A DNA stretch of 64,000 nucleotides from Candidatus Gottesmanbacteria bacterium (GTDB taxonomy: Bacteria; Patescibacteriota; Microgenomatia; UBA10105; UBA927), in NCBI GenBank assembly GCA_023245335.1, contig JAHFKK010000001.1, forward strand, positions 17,918-81,917, written 5' to 3'. A model generated the notes under the pieces. It had not been told where the DNA came from and searched no databases. It saw only the letters and a program-made list of their open reading frames with translations. A program made the translations under genes and the position numbers. Of this stretch, positions 11,922 to 32,501 are shown piece after piece; positions within the stretch are counted from its first letter, which is position 1; every line of letters starts with the position of its first letter.

Positions 11922-12707
11922 TCACGTCCGCCTTCCTAACTGACTCCGGAGCTTCCATAAGTTTACCAGATAATCCGTCGTATCCCGAATGATATTAACG
12001 GATGAATGCTTATCAAACCGCCGCAAAAACAAGACCGGCTCTTCTTTAATCCTCAGTCCCGCGCGCCTCGCATATACCATGATCTCCGTATCCCAAAACC
12101 ATCCCGGGTTTCTGGCTTTCGACAACACCGGAAGGATCTTTTTCCGGGAAAAAAATTTGTACCCAGTTTCAGTGTCTAAGCCCCCCGTGCCGATCATTTT
12201 ATCCGACAACCACTGATAACCGCGGCTTAAAATCTCCCGCAGCGCCGCGCGCGGACTGGTACGGTAGTACCGTTTACCTATGACGACATCCGCTTCTCCC
12301 GAAAGAACAAGCGAAACCAGCTTCGGCATATAGATAGGGTCTACTTCACAATCGATATCCATATATCCCACTATTTTCCCCTTTGCGGCCCGTATACCAT
12401 CCGATACGGTCCGTCCCCGACCGCGATTGACCGCATGGAAAACGGCCCGGTAACGGAAAATCCCGGTAGTTTTACACGTGTCCTTAATAAATTTTTGTGT
12501 TCCGTCGGAACTCGCATCATCGACAAATATCACCTCATGGGAAAGCTTCGAGGCCTCAAGGACAGATTGAATACGGGCTACACTACTCGTAAATAGTCCC
12601 GCTTCGTTATAACACGGTAAAATGAGGGATAAATCCAATCCGCGTTTCATCCTGGGGTATAGTACGATAGTTAGTGACCGTTGACAAGAATATTCATTAC
12701 CGCTCAT
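11922..12707 (-). CDS. GT2 glycosyltransferase, DPM1-like (polyprenyl-phosphate sugar synthase)
   Basis: LSLILPCYNEAGLF...VIFVDDASSDGT...DGIRAAKGKIVGYMDIDCE. Confidence 0.8.
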   Translation of the reverse strand: MSGNEYSCQRSLTIVLYPRMKRGLDLSLILPCYNEAGLFTSSVARIQSVLEASKLSHEVIFVDDASSDGTQKFIKDTCKTTGIFRYRAVFHAVNRGRGRTVSDGIRAAKGKIVGYMDIDCEVDPIYMPKLVSLVLSGEADVVIGKRYYRTSPRAALREILSRGYQWLSDKMIGTGGLDTETGYKFFSRKKILPVLSKARNPGWFWDTEIMVYARRAGLRIKEEPVLFLRRFDKHSSVNIIRDTTDYLVNLWKLRSQLGRRT

Positions 12708-14211
12708 ACATACCGGGTATCACCGGAACGGAATGAAAATGAGCCGTGATATAGGAAACGTCAGCGGCAGGAAGACCCTGCAGTCGACCCAATTTCCCTT
12801 CATACATATAGTGGGTTTGCGTCACTTCCAGAGCTTTGGAAAGGGACGGTAGCGAGCGGCTAAGGAACGGTATCCATTGTCCGAACGGCACACCCGACAC
12901 ATAGTACGGATCCTTGTAATAAATGGTAGAGCCCACAAGATCAAAAACATACGAATCCTTCGGAACCGCCGTTATGACGTCGTGAAGAATCGTATAATCA
13001 CTTCTATTCGTAAGTGCCAGTTTGGGCTCATTTACCCGAATGTTTACCTCAAAGAGAACAAAAAGCAGTGTGATACACGTAACGGCAAAAAGTATCGATC
13101 CCGCGACAGTACGCATGAGGCGCAGTCGAAGTACGTGTATAAAATCCGCAGCATAAAACGCGGCAAACACGGAAACGGGAATGAGGTATTGTTCATTTCG
13201 CATCGGATAGCCATGAGTAAATGTCAGGACATAGGCAAGCATCGATCCCCCGATTAGGACCTCTGCCCACGCGCCCTTCTTCCCGTTGGGCAAAAACGGC
13301 GTCACGAGACGAACTGATCCCATGATAAGTCCTGTGAGCCAAATTGCATGATTCGCGATAAGACCGCTTCCTACTCCATCCCCTCCGTATAGGAGGCCGT
13401 TGGGATAAAAAAACTGATACGGCATAATCGGAAATATCTCGCCCAAACGGTTGACTTCGAGCGGCAACTTTGTCAAAGAGTAGACGACCGTATTAAATTG
13501 TCCGAGATTCCTTGCTACTGCCGCTATCCAAATGCCGAATACGACAATCGGCATCCCCAACCCGAAAATGAAATACCACATACTCCTCCCCCGACTCCTC
13601 CGCTCACCGCAAAAAAACCACACTGCTGTTATCGCAAGTGCGACAGCCACCTGGGGTAATGTTTTCGGCAATATAAGAAGTGAAGCCGAGTACGACAGGC
13701 CGCTCAATAACCACGATCGATATTTCTTATCGTCTGAGAATGCATGAATATGGAATATCATGCCGAGAATTACAAGGAGCATAGAGAGGCTATCCGGCCT
13801 GATCTCCAAAAATTTATCTGCCGGGATCGGCATGAACGCGAGAAAGACTCCCGCAAGAAGTGCCACCCAGGTTTTTCGAACCTGCCAAAATAGAATAACT
13901 GTGGACGTCACGATCCCGGTAAATACGACTCCCGCAAATACCCTTCCGGCAAGTAATATGGACGTGCCTCTTGCAAGCCAAAATAGTGGAGCGAGGGTAT
14001 ACAAAAATCCCGGCGGGACATACGAAAGGAAATCGACAAACGGAAGCCGTCCTACGAACACGTTGTGCGCCCAATGGAGGTAGGCCATTTCATCGGCGTC
14101 AAAATACCGAATCATACCGACCCGCCACCGCCACCACAAAAAAATGATACATAACAAGGCAGTCAGGAAAATAGGTATACTTCGGACAATGCCGCGCATT
14201 TGTTTTGTCAT
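12697..14211 (-). CDS. GT-C membrane glycosyltransferase, GT39/ArnT/PMT-like
   Basis: About 12 TM helices. First periplasmic loop carries the DE motif (RYFDADEMAYLHWAHN) characteristic of ArnT/PMT GT-C enzymes. Confidence 0.7.
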   Translation of the reverse strand: MTKQMRGIVRSIPIFLTALLCIIFLWWRWRVGMIRYFDADEMAYLHWAHNVFVGRLPFVDFLSYVPPGFLYTLAPLFWLARGTSILLAGRVFAGVVFTGIVTSTVILFWQVRKTWVALLAGVFLAFMPIPADKFLEIRPDSLSMLLVILGMIFHIHAFSDDKKYRSWLLSGLSYSASLLILPKTLPQVAVALAITAVWFFCGERRSRGRSMWYFIFGLGMPIVVFGIWIAAVARNLGQFNTVVYSLTKLPLEVNRLGEIFPIMPYQFFYPNGLLYGGDGVGSGLIANHAIWLTGLIMGSVRLVTPFLPNGKKGAWAEVLIGGSMLAYVLTFTHGYPMRNEQYLIPVSVFAAFYAADFIHVLRLRLMRTVAGSILFAVTCITLLFVLFEVNIRVNEPKLALTNRSDYTILHDVITAVPKDSYVFDLVGSTIYYKDPYYVSGVPFGQWIPFLSRSLPSLSKALEVTQTHYMYEGKLGRLQGLPAADVSYITAHFHSVPVIPGMYER

Positions 14212-14263: not shown

Positions 14264-15943
14264 ATGCGTAAAGGCCTCACGGAAAAATTCGCGGTTATTC
14301 TCATAGGCATTGCTATCGTCATCATCGATCTTTGGCACGTCATCACCCAGTGGATAGCAAACCCACCCGACCGGTATTTCACCGGAATCGCTCACTATTA
14401 TGCGGACTATTTTCTCTACATATCCCAAATTGCCCAAGGAATTTCCGGAAATTGGATCATGGCCAATCACATGTATACGAACGAAAAATTACCGCCGGCA
14501 TGGATATACTGGCCGAATGTCCTTGCGGGCCGGATCGGGAGCGTCTTCACTCATTCTCCATTTCTCATCTATACCATCGGTTTAATACTCGCAGTCATCC
14601 TCCTCCTTATACTCATGTGGAGACTCGTGACGGAAATATTTCCGAAACGCCCAACCACACAAATCGTCGCATTTTTTCTTGCCTGTACAGCATCAAATTT
14701 TGCCGATATGCGGGCGTTATTTTCCCAAAATTCTTTCCGCATCGTCGGCGATACATGGTTTTCCCCGACACCGGCCCTCAACCGATTTGGGGGCGTCCCC
14801 CACCAAACACTCCAAACGATTCTCCTCCTTTTAACCGTCTTCCTTTATACCCGAATACCTCATAAACCATCCCTGAAATCGACGGCGCACCTGTGGCGCA
14901 TCGCGGGATTTATCGCTGTAAGCTTCCTCTCGGCGACACTATCTCCAATTCAGATGCTATTAGTGTGTGCGTCCTTGTCCATAACAACACTCATCTCCGA
15001 ACGATTCAAATTCACTCACCGTCTCTATTACCTTGCTATCGCTTCCGGCCTCGCGTCTGCTTTCCTCGGCGCATTTCTTGTCAATCACGCCTTTGATACG
15101 ACTCCTATTTTTGCCGCGGCCAAATCATTTGAACTTTCTCAACGCGTTTCCATGGCCTTGGTGCCGTTTCTCATCGCTATGGGACCGATAATCCTTCTTA
15201 TTCCTTTCGGGGTATACGCCTATCTTCGGAAACCAACTCCTCTCAAAATCGCTCTCCTTATATACGGCGTCGCATCGCTTGTCGCCTTTTTCTCGCCCTT
15301 GCCGCTTTTTTTGGGTACCGCCAACGTGCGTTGGCTGCATCCTGCTTCATACATTATTTTCCCACTTCTTGCGGCTGAAGCTATTATGACGGTATCTACA
15401 TGGTTGAGTTCCCGATTCCTTCACACCCAAAGAAAAATATTCTTCACGCTTTTTTATACGTTGATAATCAGCGCATACCTCTGTACGACAATTCCTTCGC
15501 TCATCGCCCAAGTCGTCGCCCGTAGTAGCCGGGAAACCGCCCCGGTTTTATTTAGCGATCTTAACCACGTCCCCAAAGATGCGGTAGCCGCATTTGCGGC
15601 ACTCAAAACATACCCGCAGAGCGGAATTGTGCTCACCGATCCCGGCCTACCGTATGACCTCCTTGTACCCATATTTACCGGTAAACCGTCTTTTACCGGT
15701 CATCCCATCCATACGCTCTACCCCTCGACGAAAGAAACGTTGCGCCAAACATTTTTTGGCGGGAAGATGACTGAAAGAGAGGCAAAACAATTCCTTAATG
15801 ATCACCGAATCGCGTATCTACTCGTCGCAACGGCAAATAAATCTGCCGTGTTACGATATTCCTTCGTCTCTCAACGATTTGACAATGGCTCACTGACGAT
15901 CTGCGCCATAGATACTGCCCACATAAACGTGCGGACGCAGTAA
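14264..15943 (+). CDS. Polytopic membrane protein, putative GT-C glycosyltransferase (paralog family member 1)
   Basis: About 12 TM helices. N-terminal loop motif DYFLYISQIAQG and FGGVPHQ. Paralogous to 21812..23497 and 25531..27090. Confidence 0.55.
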   Translation: MRKGLTEKFAVILIGIAIVIIDLWHVITQWIANPPDRYFTGIAHYYADYFLYISQIAQGISGNWIMANHMYTNEKLPPAWIYWPNVLAGRIGSVFTHSPFLIYTIGLILAVILLLILMWRLVTEIFPKRPTTQIVAFFLACTASNFADMRALFSQNSFRIVGDTWFSPTPALNRFGGVPHQTLQTILLLLTVFLYTRIPHKPSLKSTAHLWRIAGFIAVSFLSATLSPIQMLLVCASLSITTLISERFKFTHRLYYLAIASGLASAFLGAFLVNHAFDTTPIFAAAKSFELSQRVSMALVPFLIAMGPIILLIPFGVYAYLRKPTPLKIALLIYGVASLVAFFSPLPLFLGTANVRWLHPASYIIFPLLAAEAIMTVSTWLSSRFLHTQRKIFFTLFYTLIISAYLCTTIPSLIAQVVARSSRETAPVLFSDLNHVPKDAVAAFAALKTYPQSGIVLTDPGLPYDLLVPIFTGKPSFTGHPIHTLYPSTKETLRQTFFGGKMTEREAKQFLNDHRIAYLLVATANKSAVLRYSFVSQRFDNGSLTICAIDTAHINVRTQ

Positions 15944-15944: not shown

Positions 15945-17600
15945 ATGCTTGTGATGAAAAAAATACTTCATTGGATGACTATCAATCCCGGCTTCGTGTT
16001 GGTTTTCGTTTTTTTGGTGGTAGAGCTTGCCGTCATGAATGATTACGGCCTGACGTGGGATTTTCATTTCCATTTCTTCGGCGGAGGAAAACTCTTGGGC
16101 TACAGCTGGCAACAACTCGAATCCCGCCCGCTCCCTTATGTAGAGCCGGATCCAAGAAACGCTTGGACATTGCCGTACGGTCCCCTCATGAGCATACCCC
16201 CGGTCGCATCATTCCTCCTTTTGCATAATGCGTGGCACGTTTTAGCCTTCGACAATGCATACAATCTCCCGATTATTCTCTGGGGTGCAATTGGCGTCGC
16301 CATACTCTATCTCTTTCTTGATGAAGCATTTGGGAAACGGGTCGCATTACTCGGCGCGTTGTTTTTAGCATTGACCCCCCGATACGTAGGAGACTTGCAC
16401 AACAACATGAAGGATGTGCCATCCGCAGTGTCGTTTGCACTCAATATATGGCTTCTCTGGCGCCTCGCGAAATTCCGTAAGCCAATCGACCTCCTGTGGG
16501 CCATCCTTGCCTTTGCACTAGCTTTCAATGTCAAAATCAACAGTGTCTTCATACCGGTCGTCTTTGGTATATGGCTGCTTCTTACCCATGCGACAATTCC
16601 CAAAATAAAAACGCTTCTCAACCTGAAAAAACCGTTTATTTGGTTTTTTGTCCTCGCGCCGCTTGCTGCGTTCTGGGTATGGGCTATCTTTTGGCAGCAT
16701 CCGATTGCCCAAATTATCCAGGCATACTCAACCTTCGGCATCGGGACCAATAATATCGAAGTCTTACTGAACGGTTCGTGGTACTGCTCCGGCTCTACCG
16801 TCCCGTGGTATTACCCGTATTGGTATATGGCCATTACGACGCCTCTCCCCATCCTCCTCCTTTTTCTCACGAGTATCGCCGTGACCATTGCCGGCCGTAC
16901 ATCAAAGCTTGCACCGACACTCTTTCTTTTTCTGCTGTGGTTCTTTATCCCACTCACCCGGTATTTCCTCCCGACAATCGGAGTCATAGATGGCGTACGG
17001 CACTTCGAAGAAGTTCTCTTCCCCATTGCAGCACTTGCTGCAGTTACACTCGACATCCTGCTTACACTCATGGGGCGCGTTAGAAAACGAGGCATGGGAA
17101 TAGCTCTTTTGATAGGAATCATGGCGTGGTTAGGATGGAATATTGTTTCGTACCATCCGTATGAAATTACGTACTTTAACGAATTAGTGGGGGGTGTCCA
17201 TGGAGCATTCAGTAAATACGACCTGGACTACTGGGGCACGAGTCAGAAGGCGGCAATAAAATGGGTAAATTCTCACGCGCCGCAGAATGCAAAAGTGCAT
17301 ATCGTCATGGCCGCAGATGTCGCGGGGATGTATCTTCGGTCGGATTTACTTCCCAACCTCAATAAATTCGGGTACGACGAGTCAGACTTTGTTGTATTTC
17401 TTAACCGCCAATCATTCTTTTATCGGTTTTTCTACGCATACGAATACTTATTGCGGCATACACCGACGTACACAGTAAGCGTCCACAACACACCGCTAAC
17501 TTGGGTATTTGATAACCGGACCCATAACACGACACCGCGTCAGACCCCGTGGTGGCAGGCAGAAGATCCGTGCATCTTGCCATACTGGCACGCGAGATAA
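15945..17600 (+). CDS. Polytopic membrane protein, GT-C/PMT_2-like glycosyltransferase
   Basis: 551 aa with many TM helices and ArnT/PMT-like topology. Starts 2 nt after the upstream gene. Confidence 0.55.
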   Translation: MLVMKKILHWMTINPGFVLVFVFLVVELAVMNDYGLTWDFHFHFFGGGKLLGYSWQQLESRPLPYVEPDPRNAWTLPYGPLMSIPPVASFLLLHNAWHVLAFDNAYNLPIILWGAIGVAILYLFLDEAFGKRVALLGALFLALTPRYVGDLHNNMKDVPSAVSFALNIWLLWRLAKFRKPIDLLWAILAFALAFNVKINSVFIPVVFGIWLLLTHATIPKIKTLLNLKKPFIWFFVLAPLAAFWVWAIFWQHPIAQIIQAYSTFGIGTNNIEVLLNGSWYCSGSTVPWYYPYWYMAITTPLPILLLFLTSIAVTIAGRTSKLAPTLFLFLLWFFIPLTRYFLPTIGVIDGVRHFEEVLFPIAALAAVTLDILLTLMGRVRKRGMGIALLIGIMAWLGWNIVSYHPYEITYFNELVGGVHGAFSKYDLDYWGTSQKAAIKWVNSHAPQNAKVHIVMAADVAGMYLRSDLLPNLNKFGYDESDFVVFLNRQSFFYRFFYAYEYLLRHTPTYTVSVHNTPLTWVFDNRTHNTTPRQTPWWQAEDPCILPYWHAR

Positions 17601-17611
17601 CATACGCACAT

Positions 17612-19027
17612 ATGCAGATCACACCACATACATCCCGGATTTCCTTCCGGACTCTCATCTCTGCGATAAGTTTGTATGCCCTGATCCATTTCTTTTTTTT
17701 GTGGATGTATACCAACATCGATGGATATTTTTACTGGGCAATAGGTCAATACCTCAAAACCGGTGTATATCCATTTGTCTCTCCGTTTATATACGCAATG
17801 CCAATCACCATATCGCCGCCTTTGTACGGAATATTCATTGCGTTTATCGGCTCGATACCGGCAGGAGATATCATCCTGCATGGAATACAGATTCTTCTCA
17901 TGACGACCACAACACTTCTACTGTACCGTCTACTTCTCACGTCAATCAAACCATATGCAGCGACCATTATAAGCATCCTCTTTCTTTTGTTTCCGGTTAA
18001 CGTCATCTACACCGGCTCCATGATGACCGAATTGGCGGCCCAAACCACGATGACAATATATCTTTTCCTTGTCTATCGGTTTACCAAAACAAAGAATATT
18101 TCTTTTCTGGCTTCCGCGATACTTCTTACCGGATGCATGACGCTCCTCAAATATCAATTTGTAATCCTTTTTATCTTTACAATAAGCTATCTGGTAGTTT
18201 CTTTCCCTAAAAAACAGTCACTCTCTCATTTCAATGGACTAAAGGTTTTCTTTGCGGTCGTTGTCATCACCACCTGGATTATCACCAACCACTCGATGAC
18301 CGGCGTCTGGGGGCTATCCGATACCAAAAAAATGCCATTTTATACGAACTTCGTATGGGATGGGAGGCACTTTCCCAAAAAAACAGATCCGTCAGTTATC
18401 GCTTTACGTCAATATGTTCCCCCTACAGCTGACCGCTACGCTGAATATTGGGATTTGCAGGGATATATCCTTCCCTATGCGCATAATGACTGGCGGGTCG
18501 TGGATGAACTTCTGGGGAATGTCGGGATTGCGGCAATCAAAACATATCCGATCGAATACATGCTGAACGGTATACGGGTATTTGTGCAAACGCTCGCCAG
18601 TCATAGCCCCTGGTGGTACAACCTACAGACCTTCGGATCCATTGACCCCGTACAACCGGTCAATTGCACCCGATTAGGAACCATTCAGTTCTGCCGGCCC
18701 ATCATCATGACCCCCTGGTCATACCCTATCTGGAACCGATATGTTGCCATATCAGCGAAGATATATAACATACTCGTTCCTTTATTACTCCTCTTTCTAT
18801 TCTTACCTTCACTGGTGATTACGTTACTGGATAAACGGATACGTATATACAGTATCATCTATCTTGTAAGTCTCGTTCCCATCTCCTATCTTGCCATGGT
18901 GGAATCACGCTACCTTATCCCGTATTATCCGCTCATAATTATCATTTGCGTCCAGGGAGTGAAAAATGCACGCGCCATACTGTCGCGCCTTGCGAACCGA
19001 ATGCAAACCAAAAAAGCAAAAGAATAG
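17612..19027 (+). CDS. Polytopic membrane protein, putative GT-C glycosyltransferase
   Basis: Multi-TM protein with loop motif TNIDGYFYWAIGQYL. Start chosen at the Met after the upstream stop; the longer ORF from 17549 overlaps the upstream gene. Confidence 0.5.
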   Translation: MQITPHTSRISFRTLISAISLYALIHFFFLWMYTNIDGYFYWAIGQYLKTGVYPFVSPFIYAMPITISPPLYGIFIAFIGSIPAGDIILHGIQILLMTTTTLLLYRLLLTSIKPYAATIISILFLLFPVNVIYTGSMMTELAAQTTMTIYLFLVYRFTKTKNISFLASAILLTGCMTLLKYQFVILFIFTISYLVVSFPKKQSLSHFNGLKVFFAVVVITTWIITNHSMTGVWGLSDTKKMPFYTNFVWDGRHFPKKTDPSVIALRQYVPPTADRYAEYWDLQGYILPYAHNDWRVVDELLGNVGIAAIKTYPIEYMLNGIRVFVQTLASHSPWWYNLQTFGSIDPVQPVNCTRLGTIQFCRPIIMTPWSYPIWNRYVAISAKIYNILVPLLLLFLFLPSLVITLLDKRIRIYSIIYLVSLVPISYLAMVESRYLIPYYPLIIIICVQGVKNARAILSRLANRMQTKKAKE

Positions 19028-21071
19028 AAATAACGCTGATCCCTCCCCCGATAAGAAAAATTTTCGGGCGGTATTCATAAATGATCACATGATTTCCCGG
19101 TAATACATAAAGTGTTCGGAACGTACCATTTAGCTTGTTAATAGGTACTTCTTTCCCATCTACGGTCGCGTGCCAGCCCGGATACCATACCTCTGAACTG
19201 TTGAGTTCGCTATTGCAGGAAGAGGTGAGACTGATCCGTACCGTATTGGGTGTGTATGAAGTGACTAACGGCGTTCCGCAGGCAGGATTTGCCAGAAAAA
19301 ATCTGGGTTGGACCGTCTGATTTTGGTACACATGAAAACGCGCGGCTGTATTCACCATTACGGGGAGGTATCGTGAATTACCAGCAAAGGGATCGTACTC
19401 CATGGGCACGATAATGTATTTAATATTGAGAAAATCCAAAGCTTCTGGGCTTTGGGGAGTCAGATATGGCACTTGTACGTCCTGCAAAAGAATCGCTTTG
19501 TCACTCGCCATCATGGCAGAACGGGACATGAAGTCGTAGTAGCGACGAAGTATGGACGGGTCATAACCGGTCGCAGAAAATATTTCGTAACTCATCACCC
19601 CATCAAAATCCAGAGCGTCCCGCTGGGGCAACCAAACCCCAAAATCCTGCAAGACCCGATATGGCTGCGTATCTTTTTTCAGTAAGGCAATAAGCGCCTG
19701 ATCATGTCGCGCTTCCGGTACCGGTTTCAACTCGATAAATCCTCGACCGAACCACATCAACTCTCCGACAACACACACTGCCAATATTATCTGGATCACT
19801 TTCGGCCGCACCGCCGACAAACCTATACCAGCGAGCCCCGCAAGCCCAAACACTACCAAAATAAGATGTCTCGTGGGAATCCGCAGGTACTTATACATAG
19901 GAAGGAATTTCCAGAGGAAGTACTGCAAATCCAATGGCGCATTCGGTCCGAGACTCATCCAGATACCAAAAATAACAATGAAAATAAATACCATTCCCGC
20001 GAACATATCCGGATTTTTCTCTTTTATAACCCGGTGACCTCCAAATAATCTCCGCACGATACGTACTCCCCCAATGATTGCGAGTAACAAACCACCGATC
20101 CCCACAAATACGCTGTGTTCTATAAAGTTCGGCGGCGGGCCTATATACGTATGCTGATTACCGAAAAAAAACGGATTCAAAAACTGCATCAGGCTCTGCC
20201 AGGTCCAAGATCCGTATGAAATCCACGAATAGGGAAACGAATATGTGCGTATGCTGGATCGAAAAAATTCTTGTTCCGGCAAGATTTGGAGAGCGGCAAG
20301 ACCCAAGCCCAGCACCCCGGCTGCCATCGCACAGATAACCGGTATAAAACTGCGGCGGATCACACTAACGACCACAGTCATCAGTCCGACAATATAAACC
20401 GTAAAAAACGCCATCGTCTGATACCCGGCAAACAGTTGCATGGCAAACACAAACGAGGCAAGTGCCAGACGCCTCGACGCACCGGGAGAAAAGAATTTTT
20501 CGCGGGATGTAATTAACCGGTAAAACGCCCACGCTACCCACGGCATCCAGCTCGCCGCAGCGATGACATCCACATGCCCGGCCCACGTACGAGCCATGAA
20601 GAATCCGGACAACCCGAAGACCAAGCCGCTCACCCAAGCAGCCAAATTAAATTCATTCCTTCTTTTTGTTAACGGTAAACTGTTACCTGTTACCTGTTTA
20701 CTAAGTACATACATCCCCGTCATAGCCCAAAGCACATGAAATGCGACGTGCCATGAATACGCGGTGTTGATGGGTAAAAGGACAAACAACCAATTAGGCG
20801 GATACCATATATTGACGATGGGATCTGCAATAAACGGCTGTCCCCCAAATAGATATGGATTCCACCACGGGAATATGCCCAAACGTAACCAGTAGTTAAA
20901 AAATTCTCTGAAATAATAGTACTGATGATGAATGTCATCACCAAAAAGAAGCATCCCCTTCCCTGGGATTAAGGCTCCCCCAAAAACAAGAGATATGACG
21001 ATGCCGTAGGAAACGATCGGTATTCCCCAACGAACGAGTGAGCGCTTCATGCGATGCCCCAAGCGTATCAT
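18942..21071 (-). CDS. YfhO-family membrane protein (putative glycosyltransferase for cell-surface glycopolymer/protein glycosylation)
   Basis: N-terminal YfhO signature GDDIHHQYYYFREFFNYW...PWWNPYLFGGQPF and C-terminal WYPGWHATVDGKEVP motif. 709 aa, polytopic. Confidence 0.7.
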   Translation of the reverse strand: MIRLGHRMKRSLVRWGIPIVSYGIVISLVFGGALIPGKGMLLFGDDIHHQYYYFREFFNYWLRLGIFPWWNPYLFGGQPFIADPIVNIWYPPNWLFVLLPINTAYSWHVAFHVLWAMTGMYVLSKQVTGNSLPLTKRRNEFNLAAWVSGLVFGLSGFFMARTWAGHVDVIAAASWMPWVAWAFYRLITSREKFFSPGASRRLALASFVFAMQLFAGYQTMAFFTVYIVGLMTVVVSVIRRSFIPVICAMAAGVLGLGLAALQILPEQEFFRSSIRTYSFPYSWISYGSWTWQSLMQFLNPFFFGNQHTYIGPPPNFIEHSVFVGIGGLLLAIIGGVRIVRRLFGGHRVIKEKNPDMFAGMVFIFIVIFGIWMSLGPNAPLDLQYFLWKFLPMYKYLRIPTRHLILVVFGLAGLAGIGLSAVRPKVIQIILAVCVVGELMWFGRGFIELKPVPEARHDQALIALLKKDTQPYRVLQDFGVWLPQRDALDFDGVMSYEIFSATGYDPSILRRYYDFMSRSAMMASDKAILLQDVQVPYLTPQSPEALDFLNIKYIIVPMEYDPFAGNSRYLPVMVNTAARFHVYQNQTVQPRFFLANPACGTPLVTSYTPNTVRISLTSSCNSELNSSEVWYPGWHATVDGKEVPINKLNGTFRTLYVLPGNHVIIYEYRPKIFLIGGGISVISILLLFWFAFGSQGATVWRVHFSLPGRK

Positions 21072-23549: not shown

Positions 23550-24104
23550 ATGAGCGCCCCACTTACGGATGAATCCATTGATAATAAAGTCAGAAATACC
23601 GTCTATGTCCAAGACTACAGCGCGAAACCCAAAATTGACGGTGTGGTCATCCTGACCATCAAAAATTTTGTCGGGGAAAACGGTGATTTTTCCGAACTCC
23701 TGCGTTTAAATGATGAGGGTGAATCAGAGCAGATTCCGGGATTCCGGCCCCGCCAGATAAACAGAAGCAAACAATATAACAAAGCAATCAAAGCGTGGCA
23801 TCTTCATTATCGCCAAGATGAAATCTGGTACGTCCCCCCGGACGAACATCTCCTTTTGGGCTTATGGGATGTGCGGGAGGGTTCTGCTACCAAAGATACG
23901 ACACAAAAAATTCCTCTGGGCGGCGGCAACTCCATCGCTGTCTACATCCCCCGGGGTGTCGCCCATGGGGCGGTAAATTTTTCAGGCAAAAAAACGAACG
24001 TCTACTACTTCGTAAATAATCAGTTTGACCCCGCCAATCCTGACGAACAACGTTTACCATGGGACGCCCGTGGTGCTGATTTTTGGCTTGCCCAGCGTGA
24101 CTAA
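23550..24104 (+). CDS. RmlC-like cupin (dTDP-4-dehydrorhamnose 3,5-epimerase / sugar 3,4-ketoisomerase family)
   Basis: Alignable to RmlC: WHLHYRQDEIWYV...IPRGVAHGAVNFSGKKTNVYYFVNNQFDPANPDEQRLPWD, compared with E. coli RmlC ...[38 protein letters not shown]. Confidence 0.75.
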   Translation: MSAPLTDESIDNKVRNTVYVQDYSAKPKIDGVVILTIKNFVGENGDFSELLRLNDEGESEQIPGFRPRQINRSKQYNKAIKAWHLHYRQDEIWYVPPDEHLLLGLWDVREGSATKDTTQKIPLGGGNSIAVYIPRGVAHGAVNFSGKKTNVYYFVNNQFDPANPDEQRLPWDARGADFWLAQRD

Positions 24105-24857: not shown

Positions 24858-25526
24858 ATGGAAACCGAACCCGATGCACCTTCCAATATTCTCTTTCCCG
24901 CGCTTCTCATAAGTATCGTGTTACTCGGGATAGTTTATATCGCCTTCCAGGCGGCGAAAGCCCGTCCCGACAGGATAATTTTGCCCGGCGGTATTACGTA
25001 TCTCGGTCCTTCCGTGACACCGACGCCTGCTGCAAACTCCTCGACAGGCAACCTTGATGCCATTCTCATTCCTTCAAATCCCACATGGGCAACGTATAAA
25101 GGAAAACTTTTCCCCTACACATTCACCTACCCATCGACACTTTCTTTAGGCTGGTTTCCGAACGATCCGTATGACGCAGTCACCGTGTTTTACGGAAAAA
25201 CCGATGCAAACAAAAATGTATTCTTCCGCGTCGATGACCTCACCAAGCTTCATAAAACCGCATATACCGGGAACGTAAAAGGATATGCCCAAAGCTGGTG
25301 GAAAGACTATTCGTGGAAGGGAATTTCTTCCATCACACCATTTACAAATGGTAAAGGGCTGAAAGGATATCGCGCAACATATATCGACCAGTCGGACAAA
25401 ACGCCGTACGATCACGTATTTTTCGAGACTCCCCAAAGACGCGACCTCATTATATGGATAAGCGGCAAAATCTTTCCGCGGGAAATGTTCGATAAGATAG
25501 TTGATAGTGTCCAGTGGAGCGACTAA
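24858..25526 (+). CDS. Hypothetical membrane-anchored (signal-anchor) exported protein
   Basis: N-terminal TM helix (ILFPALLISIVLLGIVYIAF) followed by an aromatic-rich soluble domain. No recognised family. Confidence 0.45.
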   Translation: METEPDAPSNILFPALLISIVLLGIVYIAFQAAKARPDRIILPGGITYLGPSVTPTPAANSSTGNLDAILIPSNPTWATYKGKLFPYTFTYPSTLSLGWFPNDPYDAVTVFYGKTDANKNVFFRVDDLTKLHKTAYTGNVKGYAQSWWKDYSWKGISSITPFTNGKGLKGYRATYIDQSDKTPYDHVFFETPQRRDLIIWISGKIFPREMFDKIVDSVQWSD

Positions 25527-25530
25527 ATTC

Positions 25531-27090
25531 ATGCAACTTACTCTTGCGTTCATCATTATCCTTCTTGCTACCCTAGAAAACGTCTGGCCGATAATCGCGG
25601 GGTTCCAAGCGGCACCCAAGGGTGTGGTGTTTTTGGGCACCATACACCATTCCGGCGACTACTTCTATTATTTATCGCAGTTTGCCCAAGGGGCGACGCA
25701 CTGGCTTATGGGGCGGGATCTCTATACGTCTGAATCCGTTCCCCCAGTCCTCGTCGGATGGTCTAATATATTTTTCGGGCACATCTTCCATCTCGTCGGT
25801 TTCTCGCAGATCAGCGCGTATCACACCAGTGTCATTATCCTAACGATACTCCTTATGGCTTGCGGCTATAGACTGGCATTCTCCGTATTCGGATCCCGAC
25901 GTCCGTCGATCCTCACCCTCTACCTTTTTGTCCTCTATCATGCATTCCCGATACGGGATCACGGAACACTTACCTACAGCGATTATTGGAATAACTACGC
26001 AATCCCGAACGTCCGTTTGGGCGGCGTGCCACACCAGCTCTTCACAGCAATTATCTCAATAATCGCTCTTTTTGGAATAATCGACTGGTTGAAAGCCTCC
26101 CAAAAACGACAATGGGGGCATATATCCATCCTCACGGTATCCGGATTAATGCTTGCTTCACTACAGCCGGTCTTGTGGGCATTGCTTGTGATAAGTTCCG
26201 GTGCGACTTTACTTATATATGGACTATCACAAAAGTATAAACTAAAACAATTGAGTACTTTGTGTATACCTGTTATATGTATAGGAATCGGCGGAATTTT
26301 TCCGGCTTTATACCTGACTAAATTATTTTCCCAACTCCCGTTTTTGCAACTCAAGCTCTGGGAATCTGTCCAACAGAATCAATTGTCGTTTTCGCATTTC
26401 ATTCTTGCGACCGGACCGATATTCCTTATCGCCATAATTGCAGTGCCTTCTTTTCTGAAGGCAAAAACTCCGGAAAAGCTCATCCTTGCGATATTTGCCG
26501 GCAGCTCACTGCTTCTTTCAATCTCCCCGATCCCCGCACTCATAGGCATCACCCAAGTCCGCTTCATGTCGACCCTCACTATTCTCGCCTTTTCTATAAT
26601 CGCCGCGTACGGCTTATGGAAATGCTTCCACGGGAAGCCACTTATCATCATTCTTGCGCTTCTTACTGCCATCCTCCTTCCGAGTCATCTCAAAACGATC
26701 AGTCTCACTAGCGCATTTGATCCGGGGAACGCGTACCAGTACCTATCCGCTTCTGACTACACATTTTTACAAACCGCAGCGAAAGTAAGTAAGGATGATG
26801 AGGATGTCTTCCTTATTATATGGCCGTACGACGTCATTTTCCCCGGGCTCACCGGCAGGCGCAGCTTCAACGGACACACACTCCTCACAATTCATTCGGC
26901 CCAAAAAGACAGCATGTCCCAACTTTTTTTTGACGGATCTATGTCGGAGGTTGAAATGCGTAATCTTCTGATCACAAACCATGTCGGCTATGTATTAGGC
27001 TACACCTGGAGTCCCAAACTTGAACTTCTCCCGTTCCTTACGCGCGTAACTTCTTCACCGAATCTGGTTTTATACCGGGTCGATAAATAA
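25531..27090 (+). CDS. Polytopic membrane protein, putative GT-C glycosyltransferase (paralog family member 3)
   Basis: Shares DYFYYLSQFAQG, LGGVPHQ and a C-terminal FDGSMSEVEMRNLL region with the other two paralogs. Start taken at MQLTLAFIIILL just after the upstream stop. Confidence 0.55.
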   Translation: MQLTLAFIIILLATLENVWPIIAGFQAAPKGVVFLGTIHHSGDYFYYLSQFAQGATHWLMGRDLYTSESVPPVLVGWSNIFFGHIFHLVGFSQISAYHTSVIILTILLMACGYRLAFSVFGSRRPSILTLYLFVLYHAFPIRDHGTLTYSDYWNNYAIPNVRLGGVPHQLFTAIISIIALFGIIDWLKASQKRQWGHISILTVSGLMLASLQPVLWALLVISSGATLLIYGLSQKYKLKQLSTLCIPVICIGIGGIFPALYLTKLFSQLPFLQLKLWESVQQNQLSFSHFILATGPIFLIAIIAVPSFLKAKTPEKLILAIFAGSSLLLSISPIPALIGITQVRFMSTLTILAFSIIAAYGLWKCFHGKPLIIILALLTAILLPSHLKTISLTSAFDPGNAYQYLSASDYTFLQTAAKVSKDDEDVFLIIWPYDVIFPGLTGRRSFNGHTLLTIHSAQKDSMSQLFFDGSMSEVEMRNLLITNHVGYVLGYTWSPKLELLPFLTRVTSSPNLVLYRVDK

Positions 27091-27245: not shown

Positions 27246-28058
27246 ATGGGCACACCCGACAACCTACCAGGCAGAGAAGTATTTAACCGCGGGGCTCCAG
27301 GCTACAGCGAGCTCCATTATCATGTCCGTATAGACGCCATGACCCCTGAAGAAAAACTTGACTGGCTTTCGAGTCACATCCTGAAAGAAGAACATCGATT
27401 GTTACGGGAACCATATAACCTCCCGCAGGTGCGGAGAGAAGGAAAGGTTATGTTCCTCACGGGCGGGCCGAAAAGCGATGTCACCGAAGCCAGAGACTTT
27501 GAAGGCAACCTTATTCATACACGCCATCTGGATCATCCTCGGCCGATGTTCGCAGAGATTCCTGAAGCCCTCAATTCCATATCCCATTGGTTTGACCTCA
27601 ACACACAGAGCCAGGAACAAAACACACCCCCGCCATCTGTGGTCGCACCGCTTTCGGAAATATCGGATGTCGTCTATAACGTTTCGCATCTCCTCACCCT
27701 GGATCCCAGCTTCGGGGAGAATTATACCGAATATCTCAACCGCATCTCTGGGTCGCTGGGTTATTCCCTGGACCAACTGCTGACGCTTGCTGTTTACAAA
27801 TACAACTTTCGCCTGGGTCAGGGCAAATCCCAAAAAAATATTGCCGTCGAAAACAATATCCTTGAAAAGGTCATCTCCCAAAAAGGGGTTGACGGCAAAC
27901 TCCTCTATTCTCCGCCGACGGAGACACAGCTCCAAAAGACCTACCATACCCTCGCAGAAGTTCAGGGTCTTCTCAATACCCGACTTGAACAAATGCGTCA
28001 GGATTACGAATGGAACATAGAAAAAACCGCGAGAATCCCCTCGTCCCTCACCCCATAA
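27246..28058 (+). CDS. Hypothetical soluble protein
   Basis: 270-aa ORF filling the gap between membrane-protein genes. A strong sigma70-like promoter lies immediately upstream. No recognisable domain. Confidence 0.45.
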   Translation: MGTPDNLPGREVFNRGAPGYSELHYHVRIDAMTPEEKLDWLSSHILKEEHRLLREPYNLPQVRREGKVMFLTGGPKSDVTEARDFEGNLIHTRHLDHPRPMFAEIPEALNSISHWFDLNTQSQEQNTPPPSVVAPLSEISDVVYNVSHLLTLDPSFGENYTEYLNRISGSLGYSLDQLLTLAVYKYNFRLGQGKSQKNIAVENNILEKVISQKGVDGKLLYSPPTETQLQKTYHTLAEVQGLLNTRLEQMRQDYEWNIEKTARIPSSLTP

Positions 28059-28100: not shown

Positions 28101-29963
28101 ATGCGACTTCATGCTACGGTAAAGCGTCACATTTTACAGCTAGCCATCCTGTTTGCTCTTTTCTTGCGCATCTCACTTATATTCAACCCCGGATTTGAAG
28201 CGGATGTTTCATTCTGGAAATCATGGGGGCTTGCCACATACGATAAAGGCATTGTTGAAGGGATGAAAATCACCAACAATAACTACCCTACCCCATTTGC
28301 GTATGTCCTGGGCGGCATGGTGTGGATCTACAGCCGTTTTGCCGACCCGCATAGCTTCAACACGTTTTGGAATAGTACGAATGTCCTTTTTCTTGCGGTC
28401 AGTAAAGCATTCCCGATACTCGCTGACTTTGGTATTGCCGCTCTCATTTTATACATCGGTAAAAATACAAAGAAGTTAGGATTTCCAGATATACCGTTTT
28501 CCGTATTTGGTTTGCCTTTCTATGAGCTATTAACTATTTGCTATTTACTGAGTCCATTAAGTCTTATAGACGGGGCGTGGTGGGGCCAGGTTGACTCACT
28601 CGGCGTCTTCGTATTTTTTTGCTCGCTCATCTTCGCTCTCAAGCGTCGGCCGTTCTTTGCCGGACTCTTTTTTGTAGTGGCCATGATGACCAAACTTCAG
28701 AATATGATCTACGGACCGATATTTTTTTTGTTCATCTGGCAGATGGAGGGATACAACGGACTCATTCAGGCGCTTGGGGGGGCGGTCATAGGATTTTTTG
28801 GACTCAACATAGAATTTTTCCTCACCCGCAATATGGATCGGGTGCTTGCAAACCTCACGGAAAATTTTGATTACTTTCCCTGGATGAGCCTCAACGCTTT
28901 CAACCTCTGGTGGATAGTGAGCGGCGGCCACGGCATGCAGGTATCGGATAAGCTTCTTGCTCTTGGGATAGTGAACGCAAAAACAGTGGGATTAATACTA
29001 TTTTCGGGTTTTTATCTTTTCGCCATGATCCAACAGTTTTTTACCGGAAGTACCTCCGTAACCCGTCGGACAACGGTGCAGGGATTTCTTACGAGTCTCA
29101 TACTCGTCAATGCCGCATTTTTTCTATTCCAGACCCAGTCACACGACCGGTATGCATTCCCCCTCTCGGTTTTTCTCCTTCTCTGGGCGCCGTTTTATAT
29201 ATCACAATTCTCGTCACCCGCTACTCAGAACTCGCGCCTCAAACTATTTACTATTTACTATTTACTCTTTACTCTCTTCTATTTTTATAACCTCCACACA
29301 GCGCTCGTCGTCAACTATCCGCTCAATGGTTTACCCATTCTCTCCTCCTTCACCCAACCGGCGTTTACGATGACGACCGCGGTCATACTCCTTGTGCTTT
29401 TTGGGGTATTTATCATGACGGTAATCCGTTCTTCCCGGCGCTCAATGAACTATGCACTGCTCTCGACGGGTGTCGTCGTCGTGGCTCTCATATTTCTCAA
29501 TAAACCGCTTCTGACTAAACAACCGGTCTCCCTGACAAAATTCGTGCCGTATATAAGCGAACAAGCCTATGGAACGCGCCAAACCAATAGGTCTGTCCAA
29601 AGTTCGTTCGGCGGGCCCACCAGCTGGACCAGACTTTCAGACCAGTACGTATTTTATCGCCTCGGCATAGGAACACACGCTAACTCCCGTCATGTCTTTG
29701 ACCTCAATGGACTGTTTAAACGATTTACGACAGATTTCGGTATCGACACGGAGGCCGGCACGAAATCGAGCGCTGTGTTTGAAGTCTATGGCGACGGCAA
29801 GCTCCTGTTCCGATCAGGAGAGGCCATGGGCCGCTTCGACCTACCAAAACACGCCGACGTGAACGTTATCGGCGTCAAATCGCTCACCCTCATCACGACC
29901 GACGCGGGAGACGGCAACTATGACGATCACACCGACTGGTTCAATCCGCAGCTTTGGCCATAA
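28101..29963 (+). CDS. Polytopic membrane protein (GT-C-like) with C-terminal NPCBM carbohydrate-binding module
   Basis: Roughly 400 aa of TM helices, then a ~120-aa NPCBM/NEW2-like domain (GIGTHANSRHVFDLNG...FGIDTEAG...FEVYGDGKLLFRSG...GVKSLTLITTDAGDGNYDDHTDWFNPQL). Confidence 0.6.
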   Translation: MRLHATVKRHILQLAILFALFLRISLIFNPGFEADVSFWKSWGLATYDKGIVEGMKITNNNYPTPFAYVLGGMVWIYSRFADPHSFNTFWNSTNVLFLAVSKAFPILADFGIAALILYIGKNTKKLGFPDIPFSVFGLPFYELLTICYLLSPLSLIDGAWWGQVDSLGVFVFFCSLIFALKRRPFFAGLFFVVAMMTKLQNMIYGPIFFLFIWQMEGYNGLIQALGGAVIGFFGLNIEFFLTRNMDRVLANLTENFDYFPWMSLNAFNLWWIVSGGHGMQVSDKLLALGIVNAKTVGLILFSGFYLFAMIQQFFTGSTSVTRRTTVQGFLTSLILVNAAFFLFQTQSHDRYAFPLSVFLLLWAPFYISQFSSPATQNSRLKLFTIYYLLFTLFYFYNLHTALVVNYPLNGLPILSSFTQPAFTMTTAVILLVLFGVFIMTVIRSSRRSMNYALLSTGVVVVALIFLNKPLLTKQPVSLTKFVPYISEQAYGTRQTNRSVQSSFGGPTSWTRLSDQYVFYRLGIGTHANSRHVFDLNGLFKRFTTDFGIDTEAGTKSSAVFEVYGDGKLLFRSGEAMGRFDLPKHADVNVIGVKSLTLITTDAGDGNYDDHTDWFNPQLWP

Positions 29964-29966: not shown

Positions 29967-32501
29967 ATGAAACAATTGGAGAAATACGCCGGGATATTGA
30001 TGCTTATCTTTGCCGTCGGATGTAATCTCTGGGTCTATCGGGTGGAACCCACAGTCCAGACGGACCCTAATGACAATACGTTTCAGTACGCCCTTGTGGA
30101 CCGTACAAACCAGATATGGGACTACGCAAATACCAATTGTTCAGGCCTTATGAAGCCGTTTTGCATGCTCTCGCTCCTTACCGATCATTGGGTCCCGAAC
30201 TGGGCAGAAGGATATAACCTCCCATATTACTACTCGCATATTCCTCAAGTCGTCATTGTCTCCTCGTACCGTTTGTTTTCTCTCTTGAGTCCTCACGCTT
30301 CTCTCTTTCTTTATTATCACTGGATTACCTATCTCCTGTTGTCTTTTTTCCCGTTGGCTTTGTTTGCGGCATTTACGGTCATAGGCGTATCACCCATTAC
30401 CGCCGGATTTGGGGCCATTGTCGCGACCCAAATTTCGACCGACGGGTTATACGGATTGGATCCTTCATCATTTCTGTGGCGGGGATACGGATTAACCAGT
30501 CAGTTATATGCGATGGTATTTTTTCCCCTGGCTCTCGCCTACATCTCAAAATTATTCCAATCCGAATCGAACGATCGGGAGTACATCATATGGCACTCAC
30601 GCTTCATACTCCCTGACATAAAAACCTTCATACTCGCGACTCTGTTTTTGGCGGCGACGACCGCCGGCCATTTAGGCATCGGCATCATCGCATTTTTAAG
30701 CGCCGGAGTTATAGCAATGAGCCCGACGGTACAATCCGTACTACAAAATACATGGGATAGGGAGGCATGGCGCAGATTCCAATCCGACGTTCTCAAATTA
30801 TGTATATTATTTACCGGCGTCGGACTCCTCCTCGGATACTGGATTCTCCCCATCCTCAAAGACGGCAACTACCATAACACCTCGGTGTGGGATCCCATTT
30901 GGAAATTTGATTCTTATGGATACCGTGAGATACTCAAAAACTTTTTTAACGGTGATTTATTTGATTTCCACCGATTCCCCACGTTAACTATTTTTGTCAT
31001 CATTGGCCTCTTTACCGGCTTCTTGAGCGCGGGGAGGCAAGCATTTTTGAGAACCGTCACGCAGCGTAGCAACAATAAAAAACTTAATGACGGCATGCCT
31101 GACGGAGACGCAAAAAATGTCTTGCCGACCTCAGCGCAATATTTTCCCTTCGCACTTCTTTTTGTCTTCTGGCTCCTTCTCTACTTCGGCACCACGACGT
31201 GGGGCTCTATCCTCTACCTCATTCCCGGCATGCGAGACTTCCATATATCGCGCTTCATCGTCGGGGTCCACATGGCGGGACTCTTCCTCATCCCCATCGG
31301 ATTTCAATGGATTATTACAGCAATGTGGCGAGTCGGAACAAAATTACTGCAGCTCCTTACGCGCCGGCTGACGGGGCTTCCCGAAAAAGTAACGGAGCAA
31401 GAAAATTTTGCTTACGCCGTCGGCCAAGTACTCCTTACGATTATCATCGTCTTTTCCATATATCCCCAAACCATCTCCTATGCCACATATAATGACTTCC
31501 TTATTAAACGCGGGAATACAAATTACCTGAAAGTACAATCTGATACCGAACTGCTTCTCACTACGCTCCGAAAATACGAGGCTCAAAAACCCGGCCGGGT
31601 TTTTGCAGGCCGGGGAGGCTCATGGGGCAAAGACTTCCGGGTTGCAGAAACGCCCTATTTTATGTATCTTTCGACCTATGGCATCCCCACAGTCCTGTGG
31701 CTCCCGGAAACTTGGTCTCCCAACTCTGATATAGAACAGTATTTCAGCGAAAATAAGGCCGCAGACTACAGCCTCTACAACATCCGCTACGTGGTGACCC
31801 CCGCTAACATGTCTCTCGATCTGATCCAACCCTTCTGGAAGCCTCTCACCGCCTCAAAAACGTGGAAACTATACGAGGTGACGACGGAGGGATATATAAC
31901 GACGGGAATCCGGCCGGCAATCGTCTCCACGGCCAAAGATAACTACATAAATGTGGTCCGGTTATGGATCCAGTCCGACTTTCCCAAAAACAGACTCTAT
32001 CCGGAGTTGACCTTTGACAAAAACTATCCCGTGAGCTCCGGCCTTCCCAATTTCCGCATGACCGATGAAGTCACGTACAAAGTGCCGGGCGGCTCACTAC
32101 ACGACCTTTTCGCGGAAAACCCAACGTATATCGCACCAACAGGAGAAAAATTTGTTTCCCCGAGCGTATCCGATCAATCTGACGATCATGACATGCGCTT
32201 TACCGCAACATTCACGGTTCCTCCGAACTGCGTGGAATGTCTTGTCGTCCTGGGCCAAAGCTTCCATCCGTCGTGGCGCGCCGCAGTAGACGGGAAAGCA
32301 ACCGACACATTTGCCGTATTTCCGTTTTTTACGGCAATAGAGGTGACAGAACCGGGAACGCATACTGTCGTGTTTTCATACCAAGCTTCCCCGCTAAAAA
32401 TAGTGCTTCTCGCGGTTTCGATTCTAAGCTTGGGTGGAATTGTGTGGTGGATGCGACCAAAAAAAATGCACAATGATCCGCACAAAAGGCAACATGAATG
32501 A
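29967..32501 (+). CDS. YfhO-family large polytopic membrane protein (second paralog)
   Basis: N-terminal PNDNTFQYALVDRTNQIW and C-terminal HPSWRAAVDGKATD...PGTHTVVFSYQASPLKIVLLAVSILSL align with the YfhO-like protein at 18942..21071. 844 aa. Confidence 0.55.
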   Translation: MKQLEKYAGILMLIFAVGCNLWVYRVEPTVQTDPNDNTFQYALVDRTNQIWDYANTNCSGLMKPFCMLSLLTDHWVPNWAEGYNLPYYYSHIPQVVIVSSYRLFSLLSPHASLFLYYHWITYLLLSFFPLALFAAFTVIGVSPITAGFGAIVATQISTDGLYGLDPSSFLWRGYGLTSQLYAMVFFPLALAYISKLFQSESNDREYIIWHSRFILPDIKTFILATLFLAATTAGHLGIGIIAFLSAGVIAMSPTVQSVLQNTWDREAWRRFQSDVLKLCILFTGVGLLLGYWILPILKDGNYHNTSVWDPIWKFDSYGYREILKNFFNGDLFDFHRFPTLTIFVIIGLFTGFLSAGRQAFLRTVTQRSNNKKLNDGMPDGDAKNVLPTSAQYFPFALLFVFWLLLYFGTTTWGSILYLIPGMRDFHISRFIVGVHMAGLFLIPIGFQWIITAMWRVGTKLLQLLTRRLTGLPEKVTEQENFAYAVGQVLLTIIIVFSIYPQTISYATYNDFLIKRGNTNYLKVQSDTELLLTTLRKYEAQKPGRVFAGRGGSWGKDFRVAETPYFMYLSTYGIPTVLWLPETWSPNSDIEQYFSENKAADYSLYNIRYVVTPANMSLDLIQPFWKPLTASKTWKLYEVTTEGYITTGIRPAIVSTAKDNYINVVRLWIQSDFPKNRLYPELTFDKNYPVSSGLPNFRMTDEVTYKVPGGSLHDLFAENPTYIAPTGEKFVSPSVSDQSDDHDMRFTATFTVPPNCVECLVVLGQSFHPSWRAAVDGKATDTFAVFPFFTAIEVTEPGTHTVVFSYQASPLKIVLLAVSILSLGGIVWWMRPKKMHNDPHKRQHE

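Follow-up and report, generated by a model that had tools for sequence, protein, structure and literature searches.

The stretch of DNA analysed here in full (the window) comprises 64,000 nucleotides (nt) from a groundwater bacterium, a Candidatus Gottesmanbacteria member of the Patescibacteria, or candidate phyla radiation (CPR). Between 8.5 and 33.4 kb it carries a tightly packed block of about 25 kb, or about 2% of the ~1.2-Mb genome, that encodes nine large membrane proteins (A to I) alongside genes with matches to enzymes of sugar metabolism (Table 1). A preliminary description had counted about nine GT-C-type membrane glycosyltransferases between 12697 and 32501, and all the corresponding open reading frames (ORFs) were found, with minor start differences in D, G and I. 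The true start of D is likely the ATG at 17612, because its orthologs are 469-470 amino acids (aa) long; for G, the ATG at 25531 chosen in that description is an alternative start, and for I, public gene calls give a start at 30000 and 833 aa.

The genes fall into four apparent operons arranged around two 53-nt divergent spacers. The three best sigma-70-like sites detected between 14.0 and 33.6 kb lie in the short intergenic spacers before B, before the gene for an RmlC-like cupin and before the membrane-protein gene m222, a placement that is suggestive of promoters. D and E converge, and their 3' ends overlap by 86 nt (18942..19027), which corresponds to the non-conserved final ~30 residues of both proteins; GT2c and A overlap by 11 nt. 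GC content stays between 0.45 and 0.53 across the window with no break at the locus, and this uniformity gives no indication that the block was imported recently.

Table 1. Genes of the block, its apparent operons and the flanking genes (TM, transmembrane; SAM, S-adenosylmethionine; dTDP, deoxythymidine diphosphate)
Feature	Position	Strand	Assignment and remarks
A	12697..14211	-	504 aa; modelled ArnT-fold GT-C; without own Pfam match; opens leftward operon
B	14264..15943	+	559 aa; GT-C; without Pfam model; C-terminal alpha/beta domain outside membrane
C	15945..17600	+	551 aa; PMT_2-family GT-C glycosyltransferase; PMT_2 1.9e-14
D	17549..19027	+	492 aa; probable divergent PMT_2-like GT-C
E	18942..21071	-	709 aa; probable YfhO/DUF6044-like GT-C; large extracytoplasmic domain and C-terminal TM helix
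F	21812..23497	-	561 aa; B paralog (GT-C)
G	25501..27090	+	B paralog (GT-C)
H	28101..29963	+	620 aa; putative GT-C; membrane domain GT87-like below threshold; C-terminal NPCBM
I	29967..32501	+	large polytopic protein; N-terminal 10-TM domain and YfhO-like C-terminal module
MT1	8484..9251	-	SAM-dependent methyltransferase; Pfam Methyltransf_11 5.6e-13; last in leftward operon; position conserved in related loci
GT2b	9208..10239	-	Pfam Glycos_transf_2 1.6e-27; TM helices aa 281-299 and 312-330; 64-76% identity in syntenic loci
DegT2	10248..11384	-	WecE-type dTDP-4-amino-4,6-dideoxyhexose transaminase; Pfam DegT_DnrJ_EryC1 3.9e-97
Hexa	11381..11920	-	left-handed beta-helix acetyltransferase; Pfam Hexapep 5e-13; NCBIfam WcaF and NeuD/PglB/VioB below cutoff
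GT2c	11922..12707	-	soluble GT2, candidate polyprenyl-phosphate sugar synthase; Pfam GT2 1.7e-24; without TM helix
MT2	21068..21808	-	SAM-dependent methyltransferase; between F and E; Pfam Methyltransf_23 3e-18
RmlC-like cupin	23550..24104	+	dTDP-sugar epimerase or isomerase; first in rightward operon
GT2d	24104..24802	+	candidate ArnC-like polyprenyl-phosphate sugar synthase; follows RmlC-like cupin; without TM helix
m222	24858..25526	+	single-pass membrane protein; TM aa 11-29; Ser/Thr/Pro-rich stretch directly after TM
n270	27246..28058	+	soluble, 270 aa
PIG-L	32434..33417	+	PIG-L/LmbE-family de-N-acetylase; Pfam PIG-L 5.7e-22; TM aa 26-44; last in rightward operon; public gene calls start at 32494 (307 aa)
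Operon 1		leftward	A-GT2c-Hexa-DegT2-GT2b-MT1
Operon 2		rightward	B-C-D
Operon 3		leftward	F-MT2-E
Operon 4		rightward	RmlC-like-GT2d-m222-G-n270-H-I-PIG-L
Giant ORF	33454..63906	-	10,150 aa; adjoins the locus and converges on PIG-L
SPASM ORF	39..656	+	short; SPASM iron-sulfur match 2.9e-8; at window start, adjoins GT2 and GT4
GT2	631..1548		upstream glycan pathway
GT4	1527..2630		upstream glycan pathway
Wzy_C-domain protein	3455..5050	-	O-antigen ligase, polymerase or O-oligosaccharyltransferase type
GFO/IDH/MocA dehydrogenase	4956..5912		resembles UDP-GlcNAc 3-dehydrogenase
Second DegT aminotransferase	5909..7063		upstream glycan pathway
DUF7282 protein	7043..7636	-	TM-anchored; flanks locus
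Leucine-rich-repeat (LRR) protein	7646..8467	+	TM-anchored; flanks locus

For members of the GT-C superfamily we expected 8-13 TM helices and, behind an N-terminal TM1, a long outer loop. In agreement with this architecture, about 7-10 hydrophobic segments were seen in every one of the nine membrane proteins, with TM1 inside the first 50 residues. Direct scans against Pfam and NCBIfam were patchy, A, B, F, G and I having no match of their own, and homologs of A and B were therefore collected. The A-family collection comprised 192 matches, some of them named Candidatus Gottesmanbacteria; when 32 homologs were scanned, seven matched PMT_2 at E ≤0.1 (best 5.3e-7) although A itself did not, and two further members matched DUF2142 and GT87, respectively. 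The 107 close matches of B were all annotated as 'hypothetical' and none carried a Pfam domain. Searching 1.84 billion cluster representatives with a B-family profile (HMMER) returned 4,454 proteins at E ≤1e-3, 805 of them at E ≤1e-30, and among 32 distant members no glycosyltransferase Pfam match was seen, only noise (LpxB, PufX and similar, E 0.01-0.08). Judging from these searches, B, F and G belong to a large family that has no Pfam model.

Sequence searches of the PDB with A and B, and with the family profiles of A, B and I, gave nothing meaningful, so that a comparison of folds was needed. AlphaFold (AF2) models computed from homolog alignments reached a predicted local distance difference test (pLDDT) score of 93.8 and a predicted template modelling (pTM) score of 0.92 for B, and 88.9 and 0.90, respectively, for A. 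Both models are all-helical membrane bundles that resemble solved GT-C enzymes in three dimensions, and their top-21 lists in the fold comparison consisted exclusively of GT-C-fold proteins. The models thus support with confidence the assignment of the A family and of B/F/G, two groups for which Pfam has no model. The paralogy of B, F and G, which the preliminary description had also proposed, was evident both from BLASTP (B~G 1.2e-42, B~F 3e-10, F~G 7e-6) and from hhalign (B~G 100%, 2.7e-91; B~F 100%, 5.8e-45, 522 columns; F~G 99.8%), with every hhalign alignment extending over >500 columns.

The remaining proteins were judged against the Pfam cutoffs for PMT_2 (PF13231, 26.1 bits), YfhO (PF09586, 28.5), GT87 (PF09594, 25) and PMT (PF02366, 22.7). 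C lies well above the PMT_2 cutoff (54.6 bits) and D marginally so (27.0 bits); three of five D orthologs also exceeded it (27.2-27.6 bits), with a fourth at 25.7 and the whole range spanning 20.5-27.6. In profile-profile comparison, C could be aligned collinearly, over 330-440 columns, with the B family (81-87%), with the N-terminal part of E (78%, 358 columns) and with D (75%, 334 columns). The similarity of E to YfhO (1.5e-10, 40.6 bits) is confined to its last ~80 residues (profile positions 759-835 of 835), and aa 93-371 give a weak match to DUF6044 (0.0018), a pattern that was also found in E orthologs; NCBIfam PgfM1 and PgfM2 match the C-terminus of E as well. As for I, 12 of 31 homologs matched YfhO at 25-29 bits over the last ~50 residues only, and hhalign related E to I with 97.7% probability within the C-terminal 80 aa. 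Similarity to YfhO, the family proposed for these two genes, is thus seen at the C-terminus of E and, in I, over a short C-terminal stretch. In H, the NPCBM module was unambiguous (2.3e-29), and aa 102-211 matched GT87 (1.2e-3, 19.1 bits); both features recurred in five of five orthologs tested (GT87 at 16-23 bits, aa ~100-230), consistent with distant relatedness to GT87 rather than membership. The NPCBM part of the GT-C-NPCBM fusion claimed for H is accordingly secure, and its GT-C part GT87-like below threshold. Comparisons of A with B, and of A, H and the N-terminal domain of I with any other family, gave probabilities of ≤8%.

In GT-C enzymes a catalytic or metal-binding carboxylate sits shortly after TM1. 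An acidic residue at this place was kept in all nine families, with at least 90% conservation in each alignment: A has D38, D40 and E41 (RYFDADE), C has D39 after W38 (WD), D has D58, E has D45 and D46 (GDD), and I has D33 and D36 in an invariant D33-P-N-D36-N (DPNDN). The shared motif of B, F and G, (Y/F)xDYF, contains D48 of B, D64 of F and D53 of G; the residues of H, E33 and D35, were drawn from two sequences only. None of the nine proteins contains a WWDYG motif (searched as W[WY]D[YWF]G or WWD), and A, C and D gave neither a MIR domain nor a match to PMT (PF02366), for which a single D ortholog came to 21.2 bits, under the cutoff. The GT39/ArnT-like label that A received in the preliminary description agrees with the ArnT fold of its model, but GT39 is too specific for A, C and D alike.

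Taken together, the assignment to GT-C appears firm for A and B, given their modelled folds, for F and G, given their homology to B, and for C, given its match to PMT_2. By sequence, it is adequate for D and E, suggestive for H, and thin for I, which is compatible in architecture. Every positive match, whether by profile or by fold, pointed to GT-C proteins (PMT_2, YfhO, DUF6044, GT87, ArnT, STT3, AglB, AftA, ALG12 and Pmt), and the assignment to transporters or other non-glycosyltransferase families that would have overturned the original claim did not occur.

We next considered the genes that could supply these enzymes with sugars. DegT2 scored 380.4 bits against NCBIfam NF008687 (dTDP-4-amino-4,6-dideoxygalactose transaminase), over the equivalog cutoff of 375, and its neighbour Hexa may N-acetylate the 4-amino sugar. 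The RmlC-like cupin matched Pfam dTDP_sugar_isom (1.7e-11) and RmlC in the PDB (1.6e-4). Of a polyprenyl-phosphate sugar synthase (ArnC, GtrB, DPM1 or PpgS type) one would expect a GT2 domain closest to that subgroup, together with two C-terminal TM helices or a separate membrane partner. The best PDB match of GT2d was ArnC (9e-23), across the whole catalytic domain (aa 4-217), and in NCBIfam it matched ArnC (9.7e-27) and also PgfS. The best NCBIfam matches of GT2c were PgfS (8.6e-14), PpgS (polyprenyl-phospho-GalNAc synthase; 3.2e-12) and AglJ (3.3e-12), with dolichol-P-mannose synthase (DPMS; 5e-10) and GtrB (3e-8) as its PDB matches. GT2b is generic in sequence, EpsD and MftF being its best NCBIfam matches, and its GT2 domain with two C-terminal TM helices reproduces the architecture of GtrB, CsbB and ArnC. 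All three fell under the NCBIfam equivalog cutoffs. Of the three lipid-sugar synthases originally proposed, GT2d can thus be described as ArnC-like and GT2c as PpgS/PgfS-like, and the case for GT2b lies in its architecture.

To see how widely the block is kept, one genome per GTDB species was scanned with the B-family alignment, which located 25 loci, all in metagenome-assembled genomes (MAGs) of Gottesmanbacteria, Woesebacteria or Patescibacteria; the window proteins were then mapped onto these loci and six further contigs. The order MT1-GT2b-DegT2-Hexa-GT2c-A | B-C-(D)-E-(MT2)-F-RmlC-m222-G-n270-H-I recurred in about 25 species-level genomes, and the block is therefore not a chance assembly. 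Protein identities along it were 40-80%, mostly 40-70% for the GT-C enzymes. D was found in only some of the loci, and some genomes had an extra tandem B-like copy. B, F and G were kept as separate orthologous lines, which implies old duplications and a distinct role for every copy. Conservation was highest in the RmlC-like cupin (74-80% identity in most loci, 55-57% in two) and in n270 (71-75% across species, where the GT-C enzymes have 40-60%), the latter having no match in Pfam, NCBIfam or the PDB. m222, which has no Pfam or NCBIfam match, kept its syntenic position in most loci at 50-59% identity (32% in the divergent locus L034), always directly before G; it may function as an acceptor or as an accessory subunit. 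PIG-L was present in L030, L031 and L035. Some of the loci in full synteny (L008-L010, L013, L014, L020, L022, L025 and L027-L029) come from ENA 'TPA_asm' MAGs titled 'uncultured Gammaproteobacteria bacterium'; on loci of Patescibacteria type, these titles look like placeholder mislabels.

Given these findings, we consider it likely that this conserved block, from a Gottesmanbacteria-like organism within the Patescibacteria, serves to glycosylate the cell envelope. In the route that we propose, the WecE-type transaminase and the hexapeptide acetyltransferase would produce an activated 4-acetamido-4,6-dideoxyhexose, and other sugars would be tailored by the RmlC-like cupin and the two methyltransferases. 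Polyprenyl phosphate would be loaded with these sugars by GT2d, by GT2c and maybe by GT2b, which may act in this way because of its two C-terminal TM helices. The lipid-linked sugars would then be flipped to the outer side, where the nine GT-C-type enzymes, representing at least six sequence families, would transfer single sugars onto acceptors, each presumably using the conserved acidic residue of its first outer loop. Such a division of labour follows the scheme in which a GT-A enzyme makes a C55-P-sugar, a flippase moves it and a GT-C enzyme transfers it outside (PMC8035078). The arrangement of the operons would pair A with GT2c, the acetyltransferase and the transaminase in an Arn-like module, and GT2d with G, H and I. 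As two or three donors face nine transferases, each donor would have to serve several enzymes differing in linkage or acceptor, and B, F, G and the other families may each make a different linkage or use a different acceptor, in the manner of Emb and Aft. In mycobacterial arabinan synthesis, decaprenyl-P-arabinose serves both Emb and Aft enzymes. PIG-L, whose catalytic domain may face outwards because its N-terminal TM anchor is preceded by basic residues, probably removes the N-acetyl group of an amino sugar, either while this is on the lipid intermediate or once it is on the product.

The carbohydrate-binding NPCBM module of H argues for an acceptor that is at least partly carbohydrate and leans toward a glycan rather than a protein; a wall polymer or a glycan of the surface is thus the most likely acceptor. 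Carbohydrate-binding domains in AftD, and potentially in YfhO, are likewise thought to bind the acceptor polymer (PMC8035078). A block of nine enzymes suggests an unusually elaborate surface glycan. One might go further and picture the nine enzymes as an assembly line wholly outside the membrane that builds, with the help of the large B/F/G family, a complex, branched, methylated amino-sugar heteroglycan functionally analogous to mycobacterial arabinogalactan or lipoarabinomannan (LAM). We regard this extension as unlikely; were it true, a main determinant of episymbiont-host attachment could be such a glycan, perhaps in concert with the giant membrane protein that is its conserved neighbour. 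The part of the preliminary description that foresaw glycosylation from lipid-linked donors agrees with the ArnC-like and PpgS/PgfS-like GT2 proteins and the Arn-like operon, and nothing points specifically to the S-layer or pili that it named as targets.

Several observations weigh against reading the block as an envelope glycosylation locus. The block has no gene for a GtrA- or Wzx-type flippase, and the window none for RmlA or RmlB, which would supply dTDP-4-keto-6-deoxyhexose. The sequence of GT2b is nearest to ordinary cytoplasmic GT2 proteins (EpsD, MftF), the GT87 match of H stays under the Pfam cutoff, and profile-profile comparison found no significant link between the N-terminal 10-TM domain of I and any GT-C family. 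In the promoter scan of 14.0-33.6 kb, the overall number of sites was not above that in shuffled controls. Finally, enzyme activity, donor identity, flipping and acceptor are predictions; what they build on is gene content, the modelled folds of A and B, family matches, conserved motifs and synteny.

The same genes could serve mainly in protein O-glycosylation, the GT-C enzymes placing sugars directly on Ser/Thr of surface proteins as PMT and streptococcal Pgf/PgtC do, with pilins, the S-layer, the giant neighbour or membrane proteins that have Ser/Thr-rich linkers as candidate acceptors. E resembles, at its C-terminus, PgfM1 and PgfM2, which glycosylate adhesins in S. mutans; PMT_2-type members are among the nine; and in m222 a Ser/Thr/Pro-rich stretch directly follows the TM helix on the outer side. 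For streptococci, it is documented that GT-C enzymes glycosylate regions rich in Ser/Thr (PMC12041528). Small membrane-anchored DUF7282 and LRR proteins moreover adjoin the block in the window, L003 and L012 (in L004, the LRR protein), and the giant membrane-anchored protein is a conserved neighbour. The giant protein, however, has no 100-aa window with >30% Ser+Thr and is encoded on the opposite strand, no MIR domain was found and the sole PMT-model match was a sub-threshold D ortholog, the carbohydrate-binding module on H suggests a glycan acceptor, nine enzymes exceed the needs of any known system of this kind, and no glycoprotein is identified by the data. For the locus as a whole we therefore judge protein O-glycosylation to be rather unlikely, while for some of the nine enzymes it is a live rival.

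It is also conceivable, if quite improbable, that only part of the nine are active, the rest being dead GT-C paralogs or unrelated scaffolds, acceptor-binding subunits or flippase-like carriers. Some membrane protein must flip the lipid-linked sugar, no flippase being encoded, the membrane domain of I has no family assignment, and accessory acceptor-binding partners have been proposed for small GT-C enzymes (PMC8035078). Yet every family keeps the acidic residue after TM1 across its orthologs, and each paralog is separately conserved over long evolutionary distances. Hardly credible, and largely refuted, is the view that the nine are transporters or other non-glycosyltransferase membrane proteins which cluster with GT2 genes incidentally: it could appeal to the missing Pfam and NCBIfam matches of A, B, F, G and I, whereas no protein matched a transporter family in either database and the synteny with sugar-activating genes is conserved.

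Since its adjacency is conserved, the giant protein was considered as an acceptor and judged a doubtful candidate, as it lacks Ser/Thr-rich windows, lies on the opposite strand and has enzyme-like domains. These Pfam matches are scattered (Macro, two GNAT, a beta-lactamase-type domain, a weak HD and a DnaJ fragment); hydrophobic segments lie at aa ~386-460, ~4819-4850 and ~10088, and Cys makes up 0.1% of its residues. Giant ORFs of 7,176 to 13,064 aa occupy the same position in L032, L033 and L035, not in L034, and resemble the protein of the window in patches only, in L032 and L033. On the other side of the block, a second, conventional glycan pathway runs upstream from 631 to 7063, giving with the GT-C block about 33 kb of envelope-glycan genes. 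The SPASM ORF next to it may be part of a radical-SAM sugar- or peptide-modifying enzyme.

Patescibacteria have tiny genomes and depend on contact with host cells. To our knowledge, almost nothing is known of CPR surface chemistry, and full-text literature searches turned up no account of the locus, nor of GT-C enzymes in these bacteria. The block predicts a complex CPR surface glycan that can be searched for directly. It also flags three GT-C-type groups without a Pfam model of their own, namely the families of A and of B/F/G and the I membrane domain. The first two now have confident structural assignments, with which thousands of metagenomic membrane proteins labelled 'hypothetical' could be better annotated. 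The locus thus merits a record, both for annotation and for what it says of CPR surfaces, and no new principle is claimed: the class of mechanism is already known, and what is new is the scale (nine GT-C proteins of at least six families in 20 kb), the lineage and the structural assignments.

Comparison with characterised systems places the locus more precisely. The nine proteins differ from STT3/AglB/PglB (GT66) in lacking WWDYG, and no oligosaccharyltransferase was recovered from the PDB with family profiles of A, B or I; on both grounds, B is not an STT3-family member. Nor is there sequence-level membership of GT53, GT85 or GT89 that would tie the block to mycobacterial arabinogalactan and LAM synthesis (EmbA/B/C, AftA-D, PimE, and PpgS with Rv3779); the GT87 match of H is sub-threshold, and phylum, sugars and wall all differ. 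In the S. mutans Pgf system (PgfS, PgfM1, PgfE, PgfM2), a GT2 works with YfhO-like membrane enzymes, as is predicted here, the C-terminus of E resembling PgfM1/PgfM2 and GT2c and GT2d resembling PgfS, all far under equivalog cutoffs; Pgf modifies adhesins, whereas none was identified as acceptor here.

The Arn pathway of lipid A modification (ArnB, ArnC, the deformylase ArnD, and ArnT) follows the same logic as the aminotransferase, acetyltransferase, GT2 and ArnT-fold enzyme of the locus, except that the transaminase is of WecE type rather than ArnB and that an acetyltransferase replaces the ArnA formyltransferase/decarboxylase. At the level of sequence, ArnT profiles do not match A: phmmer and the family profile recovered no ArnT (GT83) chains from the PDB, and NCBIfam gave no match, so that on the basis of its model A would share with ArnT only the fold and the operon logic. 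As far as we know, lipid A is not expected in this lineage. Close parallels are also found in the Gram-positive three-component systems (CsbB/GtcA/YfhO, GtlA/GtlB, GacI-L and the Csd pairs; PMC8035078), in which, as proposed here, a GT2 makes a polyprenyl-phosphate sugar that a GT-C enzyme transfers outside. There, too, the GT2 and GT-C genes are adjacent, the GT-C enzymes belong to PMT_2 or YfhO or have no Pfam match, and some carry extracellular carbohydrate-binding domains. What sets the present locus apart is its place in a CPR bacterium with a genome of about 1.2 Mb, a locus without a GtrA-type flippase, and the gathering of nine GT-C proteins from at least six families into one block with two or three GT2 proteins.

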